A stretch of 64,000 bases of DNA from Bryobacterales bacterium. GTDB lineage: Bacteria > Acidobacteriota > Terriglobia > Bryobacterales > UBA6623. Every line of letters starts with the position of its first letter. The stretch's first letter is position 1. Location: assembly GCA_965238125.1 (NCBI GenBank), contig OZ250179.1:4774723-4838722 (forward strand), read 5' to 3'. Of this stretch, positions 3,694 through 62,065 are shown piece by piece. The notes under the pieces are model-generated. The model was not told the origin of the DNA and searched no databases. It was given only the letters and a program-made list of their open reading frames with translations. Made by a program: the position numbers and the translations under genes.

Positions 3694-4453
3694 ATGACCC
3701 ATTCGATCGAAAGACGATTCGTTCGTTGCGGGGTTCTGTTCTTGCTTGTAACCTGCGTCGCGGCGCCCGCCTCCGCGCAGACGGTGATCTCGGTCCGGCC
3801 CGGGCTGATTTCCTACGCCGAAGGGGCAGGTGAAACTCGCCGGCGTGGGACAGAAGCCTTCCGGCAAAGATATTCATCTCGGCCAGGGACAACACTTGCT
3901 CACCTCGGCCGGGCGGGTCGAGATTCTGCTCACACCCGTCGCCATCCTCCGCGCGAGCGGGACCAGCGATTGGGAGATGGTTTCGAGCGAGGCTTCGGAT
4001 GTTCGAATGGAACTCCATCGCGGCTCGGGTATCGTTGAGATCAGAGCAAAAGTCAATGGCGCGCGCATTTCGATCGAGGCGGGGGGCGCTTCGGTCCGGC
4101 TTGAAAACAAAGGCGTCTATCGCTTTGACGCCGTTCCCGGCTCGGATGCCGTGCTGACGGTGCTGAAGGGCAAGGCGCGGGTTTCGAACGGGGCCGGATC
4201 GCTGGTGGTCAAGTCGAAACGCTCGGTTGCGCTCGGGGCCGGTACGCTCGAAGCCGGCAAGCTCGCCTCTTCGGCGACGCCCGACGCTCTGGCCGCTTGG
4301 CACCACGAGCGTACCGCGTTGCTGTCCCAACCCATTCGCCGGGCGCGGCCTCGGCAGGTTGCGGGCGTTTCCGAGTCGACAGGTAGTGCTTTTGGTCAAC
4401 ACGGAACCGGGGCGATTCAGTGTGAGAACGGCACGCCGGAGTTGTTGAATTAG
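3694..4453 (+). pseudogene. FecR-like secreted protein, frameshifted at G-run 3823-3826
   Basis: ATG 3694 after AAGGAG; signal peptide and AQTVISVRPGLISYAEG; removing one G gives QVKL...GRVEILLTP, joining ORF 3830-4453. Confidence 0.75.
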
Positions 4454-4482
4454 GGAACCGAGCGCGTCAAACCGAGCGCGTC

Positions 4483-4719
4483 AAACCGAGCCGCGACCGT
4501 GAGGAAGCGGTATGCGATGCGGTACGCCGGAGGCAAATAAAGGGGCGGCCCCGGAACGGCGGCCCCCGAAGCGTCTTTCCCGGCTGAACTACCCTGAGTT
4601 CGCTAGTAGGGCTGTTTCGCAAGAAGAGGTTCGCTCTTCGGCACGCTTCGCTCCCGCCACCTTCCTTCGTGTTGAACGGCCTCATCGCATACCGCTTCCG
4701 TACGGTCGCGGCTCGGTTT
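4483..4719. repeat. REP-like inverted pair of 37-bp arms (4483-4519, 4683-4719)
   Basis: AAACCGAGCCGCGACCGT..GGAAGCGGTATGCGATG and its reverse complement; 14-bp tandem duplication just upstream. Confidence 0.75.
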
Positions 4720-4778
4720 TGGGGGTCGGTTTGTTATTCGAAAACTGGTAAAATTGCGGACAGAAGGTTCCGCCGACT

Positions 4779-4889
4779 ATGGTGCATCGTAAATTCCAGC
4801 CGCAAGTCGCGCGCCGCTCCGGCACGAACGAACCCCGCTTCGCGATAAGCCGCGGTACTGTCGGCATTATCATTACCAGCCCCGGTTAG
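4779..4889 (+). CDS. Predicted ileS leader peptide, 36 aa (MVHRKFQPQVARRSGTNEPRFAISRGTVGIIITSPG)
   Basis: ATG 4779 to TAG 4889; ATT ATC ATT at 4866-4874; extended -10 TGgTAAAAT at 4746-4754. Confidence 0.75.
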   Translation: MVHRKFQPQVARRSGTNEPRFAISRGTVGIIITSPG

Positions 4890-4930
4890 GGGCTTCGGAC
4901 GGGCAAGGATTCCGAGGCCGTTGACCGGGG
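4880..4930 (+). promoter_or_regulatory. Antiterminator hairpin of the ileS attenuator
   Basis: 4880-4899 pairs with 4911-4930: 19 of 20 positions paired, 3 of them G-U; it sequesters the whole 5' arm of the terminator. Confidence 0.8.
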
Positions 4931-4960
4931 TGATCGAAAGCCGGTCAACGGCCTTTTTGT
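4915..4960 (+). terminator. Intrinsic terminator (attenuator) upstream of ileS
   Basis: Perfect 14-bp stem AGGCCGTTGACCGG / CCGGTCAACGGCCT followed by TTTTGTTGTT. Confidence 0.85.
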
Positions 4961-5003
4961 TGTTCGACCGACCTGCACCGACCCCCGGTCTGGATGCAAC
5001 GCC

Positions 5004-8000
5004 ATGAGTGAACCGAAATTCGAGAAAGCGCAACCGATCGTCGATTTCCCCCGCGTCGAGGAGTCGATCCGGCGGTTCTGGGAAGAACACGAGATCTTTG
5101 AAAAAAGCCTCCGCAACCGCGAGGGGCGGCCGAAATTCATCTTCAATGAAGGCCCTCCGACCGCCAACGGGCTGCCGCACAACGGGCACGTGCTCACTCG
5201 TGTGATCAAAGACATCTTCCTGCGCTACCGCACCATGCGCGGTTTCTACGTGCCCCGCAAAGCCGGCTGGGATACTCACGGGCTTCCCGTCGAGGTCGAA
5301 GTCGAGAAGGAACTAGGCATCCACGGCAAGGCGGCGATCGAGGAATACGGCGTTGAAAGATTCATTCTCCGCTGCATGCAGTCGGTGTTTCGCTACACCG
5401 AGCAGTGGGAGAAGATGACCAGCCGGGTCGGCTTCTGGGTGGATCTTGAAGACGCCTACGTCACCTATCACAAGAGCTATATCGAAAGCGTGTGGTGGGC
5501 GCTATCCGAGCTGTTTCGTAAAGGCCTTCTCTACCAAGGCCACAAGATTGTTTGGTGGTGGCCGCAGGGCGGCACGGCGCTTTCGGCGGGCGAGGTCGGC
5601 TTGGGCTACAAGAGCGTCGAAGACCCGTCCGTCTACGTCGCGCTCGAACTGGAAGACGAGCCCGGGACCTATCTCCTGATCTGGACGACAACCCCCTGGA
5701 CGTTGCCCTCGAACCAAAACGTCGCCGTGCGCGAGGACTACGACTACGTCCAAGTGCGCGACGGCGACCACGCGATCATCGTGGCCGCCGCCTTGCGCGA
5801 GACGACCGCCGCGAAGCTCGGCCGCGAGTTGCCCGTCGAACGCGAAATGAAAGGCGGTGCGTTGGTCGGGCGGCGCTACCGCCCGCCACTTGATTATTTC
5901 CGCGAAGCCTACGGCGATGTGACCGTGGAGCGCAAGACGGGCGGGTCCGTTCCCGCCCTATGGACCATACTCGCCGCCGATTTCGTCGAACTCGACCAAG
6001 GCACGGGCTTGGTCCACGAAGCACCGGCCTTTGGTGAGGTGGACTACGAGCTGTTCCGCAAGACGCGGGAAGAGTTCACCAACCCCGACGCTGTCCCGCT
6101 GCTGTGCCCGGTCGGTCCCGACGGCAAATTCACCGCCGAGACGCCGGATCTCGAAGGCATGTTCGTCAAGGACGCCGACCGGCCGATCATCGCCAAACTC
6201 AGAGAAAACGGCATCCTACTGCACCGCGAGAACTATCGCCACGACTATCCCTTCTGCTGGCGAGCCGACGATGATCCGTTGATCCAGTACGCACGGCCGG
6301 CGTGGTTTGTCCGCACTACCGAGCGGATTGAGGACGCCATTGCCAATAACAACAAGGCGCGCTGGTTGCCGGCGCATATAGGCACGGGCCGCTTCGGCGA
6401 TTTTCTGGCGAATAACGTCGACTGGGCGCTCTCACGCGAGCGCTACTGGGGCACGCCGCTCAATATCTGGATCAACGACGAAACCGGGAAGATGCAAGCC
6501 CCGGCGTCCGTCGCGGAGATCGAGGCCAAGAACCCCGAAGCCTTCAACCAGTTTCGGCGCGATCAGATCAAGAACCCCGAGCTGTCGGATCACTTGATGG
6601 TCCATAAACCGTGGATCGACGAGGTGACGTGGACCGAACCGGGCGAACCCGGCGTCTACCGCCGCATTCCCGAGGTGATCGACTGCTGGTTCGACTCCGG
6701 TTGCATGCCCTTCGCGCAGTTCGGCTATCCGCATCAAGGGCGCGAGAAATTCGAGGACGCTTTCCCGGCCGACTTCATCACCGAGGCCATCGATCAGACA
6801 CGCGGTTGGTTCTATTCGCAGTTGATGGTTTCGACGCTGGTTTTCGACGACGAAACACAACAGCTGTGCGGATTGAAAGAGAAACGCGACTATCCGCACC
6901 CCTTCCGCACTTGCATCGTGTTGGGTCATGTCACCGATCCGGAGGGCAAGAAGGAATCGAAATCGAAGGGGAATTACACGCCGCCCGACGTCATCTTCGA
7001 CCGTGTGCTCAACGAGTTCGCCGTCGTCGGCGCGGCGCAAGCCGACATGAAGGTCGCCGCGGGCGAAGTCGTGCTCTGCCGCGAGGAGATCGAGGCACTT
7101 GATGTCAACCCCGGCGCCGTGATGCAGCTCTCGACGGCTTCGCTCGCGGGAGTTTCGAAACCCTTCACCGTGCGGCAAGGGAAGAAGTTGCCGCGCCGCG
7201 TGGCCGTCGTCTCGGCCGACGACATCAAAGCGCTCGGATTGAACAGCACCCCGGCCGGACTCAGAGTCCAACCCAACGACGTCGCCCGCCTTCCCGATGA
7301 CCAGCGCTTGACGCTCGAAAGCAAGAACGGCTCGGCCCCCGGCGCCGACGCCTTTCGCTGGTTCTTTTTCGCCGCCAATCCGCCGTGGTCGCCGACCCGG
7401 CATTCATTGAGCAATGTCCGGACGCTCCAAAAGGAGCTGCCGCTTAAGCTGCGCAACGTCTACTCGTTTTTCACGATCTACGCTAATATCGACGGCTTCG
7501 ACCCGGCGAGCGACGCCGGACGGCCCTTGGCCGAGCGAACGTTGCTCGACCGCTGGATTCTCTCCGAGGCGGCGCTGGTCACCGGCCGTGTGACCGAGCT
7601 GATGGACAACTACCTGGTCTACGAGGCGGCCGGCGAGCTGTCGAATTTCGTCGACGCGCTTTCGAACTGGTATCTGCGGCGCAGCCGGCGACGCTATTGG
7701 AAGAGCGAGAAAGACGCCGACAAGATCGACGCTTACGCCACACTCTATGAAGCGCTGGCGACCGTCACGAACCTTGCCGCGCCGTTTATCCCCTTCTTGA
7801 CCGAAGAGGTTTACCAGAATCTAGTCCGCGGGCCCTTCGGCGACCGAAGGCCCGAAAGCATTCACCTCTGTGACCTCGCCGAAGCCGACGAAAGCGCGGT
7901 CGACCGCAAGCTGTCGGAAGAAATGGCGGTCGTGCGCAATATCGTCTCACTCGGGCTGCGTGTGCGAACCGACCACAAGCTCAAGGTCCGTCAGCCGCTT

Positions 8001-8660
8001 TCGTTGGCCGAAGTGGTCCTCCCCGACGATGCGCGGCGCCAAGCGTTGGCCGACTACAGCGACTTGATCGCCGAAGAGCTGAACGTCCAACAGGTTGCCT
8101 TCGTGCATGGCGATGAGGGTCATGTGCGGTACGTGGCGCGTCCCAACTTCCGCCGTCTCGGCCCCCGGCTCGGCAAGAAAATGCCCCTGGCGAAAAAGGC
8201 CTTCCAAAACGCCGACGCGGCGGAATTGCGGCGGCAACTGCTCGCCCGCGGTAAAGCTGAAATCGAAATCGACGGCGAGATGGTTTCGCTCGATGCCAAG
8301 GATATCGAAGTACAGGTCGAAGCCTCCGAGCACTACGCCGCCGCGGGCGATCAACAGACCGTCGTGGTGCTCAACACCGACCTCACCGAAGAGCTGCTCG
8401 AGGAGGGCGCCTACCGCGAGTTGCTCCGCCGCGTGCAAGACTTGCGCAAAGACCTCGACATTGAATACACCCAACGCATCGGGCTTTCGATCGAGGCCCC
8501 CGAGAAGATCACCCGGATTCTCGAAGCCCGCCGCGAGCACTTCATGGAAGAGACGCTCTGCACCGCGCTTGAGGCCGGCGGCTCCCCGTCGCGAGAAGGC
8601 GAGCGCCGCGAGATGGAGATCGACGGCGAACCGGTGGTGGTCGTGCTCTTTGCGGTGTAG
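5004..8660 (+). CDS. ileS: Isoleucyl-tRNA synthetase, type 2 (eukaryote/archaea-like)
   Basis: EGPPTANGLPHNGH, GWDTHGLPVE, IWTTTPWTLP editing motif, DWALSRERYWGTP, KESKS; no C-terminal Zn finger. Confidence 0.97.
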   Translation: MSEPKFEKAQPIVDFPRVEESIRRFWEEHEIFEKSLRNREGRPKFIFNEGPPTANGLPHNGHVLTRVIKDIFLRYRTMRGFYVPRKAGWDTHGLPVEVEVEKELGIHGKAAIEEYGVERFILRCMQSVFRYTEQWEKMTSRVGFWVDLEDAYVTYHKSYIESVWWALSELFRKGLLYQGHKIVWWWPQGGTALSAGEVGLGYKSVEDPSVYVALELEDEPGTYLLIWTTTPWTLPSNQNVAVREDYDYVQVRDGDHAIIVAAALRETTAAKLGRELPVEREMKGGALVGRRYRPPLDYFREAYGDVTVERKTGGSVPALWTILAADFVELDQGTGLVHEAPAFGEVDYELFRKTREEFTNPDAVPLLCPVGPDGKFTAETPDLEGMFVKDADRPIIAKLRENGILLHRENYRHDYPFCWRADDDPLIQYARPAWFVRTTERIEDAIANNNKARWLPAHIGTGRFGDFLANNVDWALSRERYWGTPLNIWINDETGKMQAPASVAEIEAKNPEAFNQFRRDQIKNPELSDHLMVHKPWIDEVTWTEPGEPGVYRRIPEVIDCWFDSGCMPFAQFGYPHQGREKFEDAFPADFITEAIDQTRGWFYSQLMVSTLVFDDETQQLCGLKEKRDYPHPFRTCIVLGHVTDPEGKKESKSKGNYTPPDVIFDRVLNEFAVVGAAQADMKVAAGEVVLCREEIEALDVNPGAVMQLSTASLAGVSKPFTVRQGKKLPRRVAVVSADDIKALGLNSTPAGLRVQPNDVARLPDDQRLTLESKNGSAPGADAFRWFFFAANPPWSPTRHSLSNVRTLQKELPLKLRNVYSFFTIYANIDGFDPASDAGRPLAERTLLDRWILSEAALVTGRVTELMDNYLVYEAAGELSNFVDALSNWYLRRSRRRYWKSEKDADKIDAYATLYEALATVTNLAAPFIPFLTEEVYQNLVRGPFGDRRPESIHLCDLAEADESAVDRKLSEEMAVVRNIVSLGLRVRTDHKLKVRQPLSLAEVVLPDDARRQALADYSDLIAEELNVQQVAFVHGDEGHVRYVARPNFRRLGPRLGKKMPLAKKAFQNADAAELRRQLLARGKAEIEIDGEMVSLDAKDIEVQVEASEHYAAAGDQQTVVVLNTDLTEELLEEGAYRELLRRVQDLRKDLDIEYTQRIGLSIEAPEKITRILEARREHFMEETLCTALEAGGSPSREGERREMEIDGEPVVVVLFAV

Positions 8661-46659: not shown

Positions 46660-47463
46660 ATGGCCACCAACAAACAAACCCGCGCCAACCGCGCAAACGC
46701 CAAAAAATCCACCGGACCACGCACCACCGCCGGCAAAACCCGCTCTTCCAAAAACGCTCTCAAGCACGGCCTGCTCTCCCAAGACTCCGTCCTTCCCGGC
46801 GAAGCCCCCGAAGAATTCGACCGTCAACTCACCGCCATCGAGGACTGGGTCCTCCCCCGCAACCCGCTGGAGCGCGAAATCTGTCGCCAAATCGCCGACG
46901 CCGCCTGGCACATGCAGCGCCTCTCGCGCATCGAGACGGCCATGATGACCGCCAAGATGAACCACGTCCGCGCCTACGTCGAACACATCAAGTCCGACGT
47001 CGATCTCGACCGCGAAGACCAAACCAGGCTTCTCGGCAAAGCCATGCTCGGCGGCACCCAATCGGTCGTCCAACTCTCGCGCTACGACGGACATCTCACT
47101 CGCCGCTTCTACCGCGCCGTCGAACTGCTCACCGAGATCCGCCAAGGCGAGCGAAAATCCCGCGAGGCCCGCAACAAAGGCGATCACGGCTTCGACGTTT
47201 ACAGCCCCACCGATCCGCCCGAGTTTCAGCATCAATACATCCCCGCCAAACCCGACATAATCAACCGCGCCGCCCCCAACCGAGCCGTCCCCAACCGAGC
47301 CGCGCACGTAAGTGAGCGGTATCAGACGAACCCCCAAGACCATAAGGAAGGCGGCGGACCCGAAGCATCCCACGACCGCGTCCCCACCACCGACCCCGTC
47401 AACCCACCCACCGCCGAAACCCGCCCCACCACGCCCGTGAAAGCCCCGCCACTCCTACGCTAG
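46660..47463 (+). CDS. Hypothetical protein with MATNKQ..ANRANAKKSTGPRT..GK..SSKNALKHGL start and Pro-rich tail
   Basis: GAGG RBS; N-terminal motif recalled from a widespread hypothetical family. Confidence 0.75.
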   Translation: MATNKQTRANRANAKKSTGPRTTAGKTRSSKNALKHGLLSQDSVLPGEAPEEFDRQLTAIEDWVLPRNPLEREICRQIADAAWHMQRLSRIETAMMTAKMNHVRAYVEHIKSDVDLDREDQTRLLGKAMLGGTQSVVQLSRYDGHLTRRFYRAVELLTEIRQGERKSREARNKGDHGFDVYSPTDPPEFQHQYIPAKPDIINRAAPNRAVPNRAAHVSERYQTNPQDHKEGGGPEASHDRVPTTDPVNPPTAETRPTTPVKAPPLLR

Positions 47464-61033: not shown

Positions 61034-62065
61034 TCAATGTTTCGGTAATTGCGCCACACCTCCCGGACCCTCGCCACTGAGTTGTATTGCGTTGAGGTCG
61101 TCACTCACAATCAGCAACACAGCATCCCGTTCCTTGGAATCGGTAGGAAACAAGAGGGAATCGTACTTACCGTTGAGCCATCGCGACCCCATACTGAGAC
61201 ATAATTTACTCAAGAATGGGTCATTGCGTGAGCTTTCCGGGTCAGCTGTTTTGAAATACTCCACGGTGTCGGCTAGAGCGTCCGAGTAAAGTTGTAACGG
61301 GTGCGGCAAAGCAGTTTCAGAGTAAAGAGATTGATGCGATTTATCAAACACTAGTGACGCGTAGAGCATGCCAAGCAGATCCCCCAGAGTTTCATCGACA
61401 ACGCCTCGAGCCTTGAGTTCTAAGAACACACTCATCCCTGCCTTGAACGTCTTGACGAGGCCTATGTTCATCTCGCGCTGAGGCTGTGGAGAGTATTCCC
61501 TGGAAAAATTGCCGTAATCATTATAAATAAATCTTGAGTTGAGGTTGGACGCCGCAGATATGATGCTTGATTCGCGCCGAAAGATCAGGGAGTTGCGGTC
61601 CGTTGTTGGCGAAATATGCGCCCCCTTGCCCGTGCCATCGTAATCCGTAAACAACGGCTCTTCGAAGAGGATCGCACTGTGTATTCTACATTGATCTGAA
61701 AGCAGACTTCTAAACAATGACCGGTAGGCGTGCTTAACGAGAGAGTCGGCGTCTAACAACTCGATGCCCAGGAGGGCGTTTGCCGCCACCCAGTCGCCCC
61801 TGCCCATCGGACCTACTGCCATGGCCAGTAAGATTACATTCTTCCCCCGCAAGTGATCAGTTTCACCCGGCGGCAGAAGGCCGAACCTAGGCAGATCACC
61901 GAAGGTCAGATCGGCGAGTACGCGAGGATTTACCATTTCCGGTCGTGGCGGCTCGTCTCGGTGCTGAAGGTCTGAAGGAGAGCAACTCAGCAGGCTAAAG
62001 CTCAGGAGTATCGATGGGAGCGCCGGGAAGTGGCGCAAAGCAGAAGGCTGTTGTGGAGTCAGCAT
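61034..62065 (-). CDS. Lower-GC hypothetical lipoprotein
   Basis: 343-aa ORF; SFSLLSC lipobox-like; visibly AT-richer than the flanks. Confidence 0.65.
   Translation of the reverse strand: MLTPQQPSALRHFPALPSILLSFSLLSCSPSDLQHRDEPPRPEMVNPRVLADLTFGDLPRFGLLPPGETDHLRGKNVILLAMAVGPMGRGDWVAANALLGIELLDADSLVKHAYRSLFRSLLSDQCRIHSAILFEEPLFTDYDGTGKGAHISPTTDRNSLIFRRESSIISAASNLNSRFIYNDYGNFSREYSPQPQREMNIGLVKTFKAGMSVFLELKARGVVDETLGDLLGMLYASLVFDKSHQSLYSETALPHPLQLYSDALADTVEYFKTADPESSRNDPFLSKLCLSMGSRWLNGKYDSLLFPTDSKERDAVLLIVSDDLNAIQLSGEGPGGVAQLPKH

Follow-up and report, generated by a model that had tools for sequence, protein, structure and literature searches.

In E. coli, the leader peptide trpL ends with W-W-R-T-S-stop, and the leader peptide pheM with F-F-F-Y-F-S-T-stop. 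Among synthetase genes, pheST is named as the gamma-proteobacterial example of attenuation, and candidate attenuators have been reported for trpS and leuS in Streptomyces (PMC1262725). The controls of ileS described in two sources are T-boxes (PMC1262725; 10.1101/2022.02.09.479832): those located 5' of ileS are transcriptional in Firmicutes and translational in Actinobacteria (PMC1262725). Ribosome profiling in Caulobacter crescentus revealed an "ileS leader CDS" (CCNA_03934), which served only as a control construct (PMC4117421). Apart from this one, our full-text literature search met with no mention of published ileS leader ORFs; nor did it turn up, for Acidobacteriota, any published account of ileS under the control of a leader-peptide attenuator.

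The window analysed here is a stretch of 64,000 nucleotides from a soil bacterium of the Bryobacterales, and all the features discussed below are on its forward (+) strand. Its ileS gene, at 5004-8660, was identified through Pfam and PDB matches as encoding an isoleucyl-tRNA synthetase of 1218 aa that belongs to the eukaryote-like type, IleRS2: the product has the Pfam domains tRNA-synt_1, Anticodon_1 and DUF5915, and its best PDB matches are 8c8v, 1ile, cytoplasmic IleRS enzymes, with 1ffy (S. aureus IleRS1) matching far more weakly. The gene upstream of the leader, on the same strand, ends at 4453, and its substitutions relative to one of the related loci introduced below, L005, concentrate at third codon positions. 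A large inverted repeat lies between that gene and the leader.

The region in front of ileS has the parts of an attenuator: a putative leader, namely a short ORF with a ribosome-binding site downstream of a promoter-like block; a cluster of Ile codons near the 3' end of this ORF; and an intrinsic terminator between the ORF and ileS. The promoter-like block, AAAACTGGTAAAAT, is at 4741-4754 and includes an extended -10 element, TGGTAAAAT, at 4746-4754, 25 nt upstream of the leader ATG. A Shine-Dalgarno-like GAAGG follows at 4763-4767, 11 nt 5' of the same ATG. The predicted leader ORF runs from 4779 to 4889 and has 36 codons: its peptide is MVHRKFQPQVARRSGTNEPRFAISRGTVGIIITSPG, with C-terminus V-G-I-I-I-T-S-P-G, and its stop codon, TAG, is at 4887-4889. 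The regulatory codons ATT ATC ATT (Ile-Ile-Ile) occupy 4866-4874 and are in-frame codons 30-32 of 36. A preliminary description made from the letters of the window had placed the extended -10, the 36-codon ORF and the three Ile codons at these positions, and direct reading finds each of them there, the Ile codons in frame. By analogy, the geometry, in which the regulatory codons are followed by three to four codons and then by the stop, resembles that of trpL and pheM. We conclude that the element is real, and that it is probably functional, as a leader-peptide transcription attenuator of the trpL/pheM type.

The terminator, at 4914-4964, consists of a 15-pair stem (4914-4928 with 4941-4955, -29.6 kcal/mol), a 12-nt loop and a U-tract, TTTTTGTTGTT, at 4954-4964; the core of the stem is a series of 14 perfect Watson-Crick pairs, 4915-4928 with 4941-4954, to which G4914.U4955 is added. 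The antiterminator, at 4880-4930, pairs 4880-4899 with 4911-4930 (-35.6 kcal/mol). Its 5' arm spans the leader's stop codon, and its 3' arm contains the entire 5' arm of the terminator: the two helices are mutually exclusive. The two helices, the perfect 14-bp terminator with its U-tract and the overlap of their arms had been claimed in the preliminary description, and one detail needs correction: the antiterminator, announced as a helix of 20 bp, keeps its coordinates but is a helix of 20 positions of which 19 are paired, with 16 Watson-Crick pairs, 3 G-U pairs and one G.G mismatch.

Two smaller hairpins accompany this pair. The first one, AGCCCC/GGUUA/GGGGCU, at 4878-4894, pairs 4878-4883 with 4889-4894 (-12.1 kcal/mol), the leader stop codon being spread over its loop and 3' arm; the hairpin is conserved and carries no compensatory change. 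It would be the 1:2 element, or anti-antiterminator, that competes with the antiterminator and holds its arm when no ribosome is stalled. The second one, at 4844-4871, belongs to the RNAalifold consensus and pairs GAUA 4844-47 with UAUC 4868-71, and GCCG 4849-52 with CGGC 4862-65. Seven of these eight pairs hold in all six sequences compared below, with no covariation, and the hairpin shares bases with Ile codons 1-2. It may be a pause or synchronising hairpin. Because neither hairpin shows covariation, both roles are inferred.

The preliminary description had proposed to fold 4860-4965, and RNAfold recovers both helices in this segment: the terminator is the minimum-free-energy structure (-47.8 kcal/mol), and the antiterminator is the centroid, a combination that is the signature of two competing folds. 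In terms of energies, the comparison is between -35.6 kcal/mol for the antiterminator and -41.7 kcal/mol for the terminator together with the 1:2 hairpin (-29.6 and -12.1), and the two states are predicted to be balanced. The complete leader folds to the terminator state, and a truncated segment folds to the antiterminator state.

The layout of the leader is far beyond chance. Runs of three consecutive Ile-codon triplets are found twice in the 128,000 strand positions of the 64-kb window, both strands included; the second run, at 61517, falls within a gene of the minus strand, where the sequence is richer in AT, and has no relation to the leader. In 80 related loci, or 1.48 million strand positions, the background of such runs is 0.005 per 250 nt. 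We also shuffled the segment 4860-4910 while keeping 4911-4930, 1000 times: the native sequence 4860-4930 folds at -35.8 kcal/mol, versus a mean of -22.2 +/- 3.0 for the shuffled ones (z = -4.55), none of the 1000 shuffles reaches as low a value, and only 2 pair as many bases of the terminator arm as the native sequence does. Between the upstream arm and the terminator's 5' arm, the complementarity is specific. As for the terminator itself, a scan of the whole window for hairpins followed by U-tracts ranks it as the strongest and cleanest in 64 kb, by a wide margin; a simple consensus terminator scanner missed it because the loop limit of that scanner is 8 nt and the loop has 12 nt here.

A scan with the IleS protein, keeping one genome per species, yielded 80 loci, mostly from Bryobacterales, then from Myxococcota and others. 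A homologous leader is present 5' of ileS in five relatives: L001, L005, L003, L004 and the metagenome contig L083. The latter was found with a metagenome DNA pattern that purposely omitted the Ile codons; this pattern gave seven matches, and the six others are chance matches in unrelated contexts. Together with the window, these relatives form two tight subgroups: subgroup A contains the window, L001 and L005, whose IleS proteins are 94-95% identical to that of the window, and subgroup B contains L003 and L004, whose IleS proteins are 78-79% identical to it, and L083. In both subgroups, the leader is always directly upstream of ileS and on the same strand.

All six sequences have the promoter-like TGnTAAAnT, the Shine-Dalgarno, an ORF that ends in G-I-I-I-[T/S]-[S/G]-P-[G/R]-stop, the antiterminator and the terminator. 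In their alignment, the A..GG of the Shine-Dalgarno is invariant, and its distance to the -10 block is 8 nt in subgroups A and B alike; the start codon comes 8-11 nt past the Shine-Dalgarno, and its position is kept in the six sequences. The codons ATT ATC ATT and the position of the stop are also invariant, while the remainder of the peptide diverges freely, with 36 codons in the window, L001 and L005, and 55-57 codons in L003 and L004; a 6-nt indel in L004 leaves the frame intact. The Ile codons show no synonymous variation among the six sequences, so that the identity of the codons is not separable from plain nucleotide conservation; some bases of the run are also paired in a conserved hairpin.

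The secondary structures can be read from the same alignment, in which all covariation comes from essentially one evolutionary split. Four pairs of the terminator stem exhibit compensatory double changes between subgroups (G-C/A-U, U-A/C-G, G-C/A-U and A-U/G-C), and 97.8% of the alignment cells of this stem are paired, versus 13-58% when the partner is slid. For the antiterminator, the corresponding values are 91%, versus 60-63% after a shift of the partner by one column. In the arm that both helices share, which is the terminator's 5' arm, all four changes are transitions, and three of the four can still pair, by G-U wobble, with the unchanged 5' arm of the antiterminator. In the lower stem of the antiterminator, CUUCGGA/UCCGAGG is replaced by CUUCUGGA/UUCAGAGG, an exchange of G-C to U-A: read by eye, it is the sole compensatory change of the antiterminator, and it is absent from the automatic count because a 3-nt alignment gap hides it. 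The conserved Ile runs and covarying stems that the preliminary description had proposed to look for upstream of ileS in relatives are thus present, the former in six of six sequences, and the latter as the four covarying pairs of the terminator.

Outside of these subgroups, the leader is absent from the other 75 species-representative loci related by IleS and from four metagenome contigs checked. Loci without it include L002 and L006, which at 78-79% IleS identity are as close to the window as subgroup B is, and all loci at 73% identity or below; the four contigs obtained by a protein search with the N-terminus of IleS, at 77-84% identity, are also without leader. When the 80 loci were scanned for a leader ORF with at least two adjacent Ile codons, or for a hairpin followed by a U-tract, the only matches outside the subgroups were scattered and unconserved, and a covariance model built on the switch found, among 86 sources, no copies beyond the six known ones. 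Since L002, L006 and more distant relatives do without the leader, it is dispensable. On the loci surveyed, the element is confined to a narrow clade of Bryobacterales.

An attenuator also requires a particular spacing: a ribosome stalled at the regulatory codons should permit the antiterminator, and a ribosome at the stop should prevent it. We modelled this by hiding the mRNA up to a limit set 9-15 nt past the first base of the A-site codon, and refolding the rest through the U-tract, at equilibrium only. With the 9-nt edge, an A site placed at any of Ile1, Ile2 and Ile3 makes the antiterminator the minimum-free-energy structure in the window, L003 and L083; in L005 and L004, Ile3 alone does so, and Ile1-2 need wider edges: an A site on an Ile codon gives the antiterminator in five of the six sequences. 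From the codon after the Ile run through the stop, the same edge gives the terminator in all six. With wider edges, 13-15 nt past the A-site codon, the antiterminator is obtained only from stalls at Ile1-2. The spacing found in this equilibrium model is thus that of an attenuator, with one exception: L001, whose antiterminator is weakened by a G-to-C change in its arm and whose U-tract is shorter, folds into the terminator in every modelled state. According to the model, the Ile run coincides exactly with the final ribosome positions that still allow antitermination, as a ribosome-mediated attenuator requires.

The mechanism that we propose combines the parts, the conservation, the covariation of the terminator and the positional logic that computation establishes, and presumes that the promoter is used, that the leader is translated, that transcription and translation are coupled, and that expression responds to isoleucine. 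Transcription would start a few bases past the TGGTAAAAT element; a ribosome would load at GAAGG/ATG and translate the 36 codons behind the transcribing RNA polymerase. If charged tRNA-Ile is plentiful, this ribosome would pass ATT ATC ATT, reach the TAG at 4887-4889 and cover the 5' arm of the antiterminator, 4880-4899; the segment 4911-4930 would then pair with 4941-4955, and the polymerase would terminate in the U-tract, about 45 nt before the start of ileS. If charged tRNA-Ile is scarce, the ribosome would stall with an Ile codon in the A site, at a distance upstream that just suffices to leave 4880-4899 free and the small competing hairpin melted; the antiterminator 4880-4899/4911-4930 would form, block the terminator, and let the polymerase read into ileS.

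We hold it likely that a ribosome-mediated transcription attenuator of this kind sets the expression of ileS by the supply of Ile-tRNA-Ile. The preliminary description had inferred the same logic, with termination when the ribosome reaches the stop and read-through when it stalls at the Ile codons; conservation, covariation and the masking model all speak for it. It had also called the attenuator Ile-sensing: this agrees with the attenuator reading, provided that the signal is understood to be the supply of charged tRNA-Ile to the translating ribosome, as the model would have it, and not free isoleucine. For decoding ATT as well as ATC, a single tRNA-Ile with anticodon GAU is expected to suffice. 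In ileS itself, ATT is rarer than ATC, with 9 codons versus 41.

A different account of the same parts is that promoter, small ORF and terminator make up a short transcription unit of their own, such as a gene for a small RNA or a small protein, or that the terminator is constitutive and partial; ileS would owe its expression to a fixed level of read-through or to another promoter, and the Ile codons would sense nothing. Where the promoter of ileS lies is central to this account. The sequence AAACTG[G/A]TA[A/G]A[A/C]T is common to the six leader-bearing loci of both subgroups, in an alignment where the flanking sequence has diverged, and a relaxed version, AAAC-N2-3-TA[AG]A[ACT]T, is found 5' of ileS in 11 of 86 sources, versus 1 match in 568 kb of background. 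The -10-like motif also occurs 5' of ileS in L007/L088 and L008/L009/L080, which are loci without the Ile leader. Because it precedes ileS in these related lineages too, we take it to be the ileS promoter of the lineage, and the terminator therefore stands between this promoter and ileS. A scanner for consensus -35/-10 elements reported no promoter, either at the TGGTAAAAT block or in the gap between terminator and ileS, and the promoter function of AAAACTGGTAAAAT is for this reason inferred. A sigma-54 reading of the conserved TGGAAAC block was considered and rejected: the group of the window lacks GG at -24, and no sequence has GC at -12.

In the window, the U-tract is only about 40 nt away from the ATG of ileS, a gap in which no promoter-like site was found and which leaves no room for a separate ileS promoter. 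In subgroup B, 130-190 nt separate the terminator from ileS, and this spacer could hold another promoter, which gives some ground to an independent unit. So do the preference of L001 for the terminator in all modelled states, and the existence of small RNAs derived from attenuators that have functions of their own, of which rnTrpL in Sinorhizobium is an example. Against such a unit, the leader never leaves its place directly 5' of ileS, on the same strand, in either subgroup; the specific and conserved antiterminator over the terminator arm would have no purpose in a plain terminator; and the Ile run falls exactly at the switching boundary. We consider an independent unit or a constitutive terminator to be improbable.

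Even less probable, in our judgement, is an attenuator that depends on translation but reports general translation stress or the arrest of its nascent peptide, through slow termination at S-P-G-stop or through antibiotics that target the ribosome or IleRS, instead of reporting specifically the supply of Ile-tRNA-Ile. The C-terminal [T/S][S/G]P[G/R]-stop is indeed conserved along with the Ile run; upstream ORFs that sense ribosome-targeting antibiotics are known (PMC12121999); and the enzyme under regulation belongs to the IleRS2 type, which a preprint ties to mupirocin resistance and reports to be induced by mupirocin in one Bacillus species (10.1101/2022.02.09.479832). However, the last four codons are arms of the hairpins, which explains why they are conserved, and a ribosome held past the Ile run leads to termination in the masking model: a stall at Pro-Gly-stop would therefore repress ileS, not induce it. 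Ile codons in front of a gene for IleRS are most simply read as matching it.

The least probable account keeps the switch and removes the ribosome: a trans-acting factor, either uncharged tRNA-Ile, in the manner of a T-box, or IleRS itself, by autoregulation as for E. coli thrS, would bind the conserved AUUAUCAUUA stretch or the hairpins, a reading that would fit the conservation of the Ile-codon stretch at the nucleotide level, with no synonymous change, the use of AUC as the usual Ile specifier and the T-box control of ileS in Firmicutes and Actinobacteria (PMC1262725), but that leaves unexplained, for a sensor made of RNA only, the conserved Shine-Dalgarno, start codon, frame and fixed stop, and that meets an antiterminator with a single G.G or G.A mismatch where the UGGN-type bulge that binds the acceptor end should be. 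In the interval 4300-5300, an Rfam scan at E <= 10 returned only miRNA and sRNA noise, with no T-box and none of the amino-acid leader families (His, Leu, Thr, Trp, Phe), as the preliminary description had stated for the T-box; a scan at gathering scores of 15 related loci, L003 and 14 leaderless ones, gave no match, T-box included. The T-box riboswitch (RF00230) was rejected as a candidate: there is no match to its covariance model, no 7-nt antiterminator bulge and no specifier loop. Binding of IleRS to the anticodon-like GAU of the terminator loop was rejected as well: this GAU is found in the subgroup of the window and is absent from the other, the sequence of the loop not being conserved between the two.

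Coming back to the leader-peptide attenuator, the control principle is a known one, found at a new gene and in a new phylum; the mechanism itself is not new, and our understanding of attenuation is unchanged by it. What the locus offers is a clear and testable case of classical ribosome-mediated attenuation in Acidobacteriota, whose gene regulation is almost unstudied, and an indication that a leader peptide can govern ileS, a gene known above all for its T-boxes. Its two subgroups, the weakened copy in L001 and the near relatives without the element also make a small set of natural variants for tracing the origin and the decay of a switch. A tentative conjecture, which we regard as possible though doubtful, is that the attenuator is young: an older, conserved ileS promoter (AAAC-N2-3-TAAAYT), shared by leaderless relatives, would have acquired it on its downstream side in one small lineage of Bryobacterales, and sister lineages would have lost it or never fixed it. 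In the same conjecture, a further role might be to respond, by induction, to IleRS inhibitors that occur naturally in soil, since the regulated enzyme is of the IleRS2 type, the type that is insensitive to mupirocin. If the young origin is true, the locus is a datable example of how a leader-peptide attenuator arises.

Set against the systems described at the outset, the element shares most with the E. coli ones. The T-boxes of ileS regulate the same gene in response to the same signal, the charging of tRNA-Ile, and those of Firmicutes also rely on a competition between antiterminator and terminator; unlike the present leader, they sense uncharged tRNA directly, without a ribosome. Caulobacter CCNA_03934, which can be compared by its description only, is likewise a translated small CDS in an ileS leader of a Gram-negative bacterium; it belongs to Alphaproteobacteria, and has no demonstrated homology with ours. 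The likeness to trpL and to the amino-acid leader families of Rfam is one of mechanism, not of homology: both are built of several segments, both have their stop codon within or beside the one that has to be free for antitermination, and both end with an intrinsic terminator. Those leaders control biosynthetic operons, whereas this one precedes a synthetase gene, and its putative anti-antiterminator is a small local hairpin around the stop codon instead of a long 1:2 helix. With respect to E. coli pheM/pheST, the differences are the amino acid and the gene (Ile and ileS), the phylum (Acidobacteriota, in Bryobacterales), the IleRS2-type enzyme, the lack of sequence similarity, and a leader of 36-57 codons, longer than the classical ones, with only three regulatory codons. 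Nevertheless, pheM/pheST is the closest system in logic: a short leader ORF with cognate codons near its stop, antiterminator and terminator hairpins that exclude each other, then the gene of a synthetase, of which more is made when its charged tRNA is low.

In Bryobacterales lineages devoid of the Ile leader, the short ORF with the codons ATT ATC ATT, ileS is preceded at a distance of 214-474 nt by the -10-like motif GGAAACGGTAAACT, akin to GAAAACTGGTAAAAT of the window: the motif is found at L007:2529-2540, L008:2786-2797, L009:2787-2798, L080:2787-2798 and L088:1027-1038. Since the motif keeps such a distance from ileS even where there is no Ile leader, long leaders appear to be general in the clade: the rule seems to be a long 5' leader of ileS, transcribed from a conserved promoter. 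The ~50 nt immediately 5' of the ileS ATG, CCTAAACCGAACG.GTGAGTCCATCACAGTCC, are likewise conserved in the group without the Ile leader.

In the group with ~73% IleS identity, represented by L007 and L088, the ileS leader is ~470 nt long and has two hairpin-plus-U-tract sites, one of which is the long-range helix GGGGACAGGCA...TGCCTGTCCCC-TTTTTT. This leader, whose region includes L007:2780-2890 and L088:1281-1390, contains no run of Ile codons and has no Rfam match; it may be another, uncharacterised ileS attenuator, distinct from the Ile-codon type.

The Ile-leader attenuator has a copy at L001:2852-2960, in a close relative. There, the antiterminator is weakened by a substitution, CCCCGG to CCCCCG, that also turns a Gly of the leader peptide into Arg, and the U-tract is shortened, TTTT versus TTTTT. 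These differences may compensate for one another; alternatively, they may mark the onset of decay of the switch.

In 4456-4719, after the end of the upstream gene at 4453 and before the leader promoter, a 14-nt sequence, AACCGAGCGCGTCA, is duplicated in tandem. Next comes a large inverted repeat whose 40-nt arms (4483-4522 and 4680-4719), 93% complementary, are separated by a 157-nt spacer. The repeat folds at -154.9 kcal/mol (z -7.25) and has GGTTTT as its terminal sequence. This element may serve the upstream gene as a terminator or insulator; alternatively, it may be MITE/REP-like. The same element is present in L001; the equivalent place in L005, another leader-bearing relative, has an unrelated inverted repeat with perfect 37-nt arms. 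A weak, partial copy of the 4456-4719 element lies at 47278-47366 of the window.

The only other Ile-Ile-Ile triplet of the window falls within 61034-62065 (minus strand), a visibly AT-richer stretch, in a window of 61% GC, that holds a 343-aa ORF on the minus strand and may be foreign DNA.

Outside Bryobacterales, MAGs of Myxococcota and Spirochaetales encode the nearest relatives of the window IleS (5004-8660), which are 54-59% identical to it. Residues 684-848, between the catalytic and anticodon-binding domains, have no Pfam match, which suggests an insertion there; the protein counts 1218 aa, versus ~1030 in the nearest solved IleRS2.
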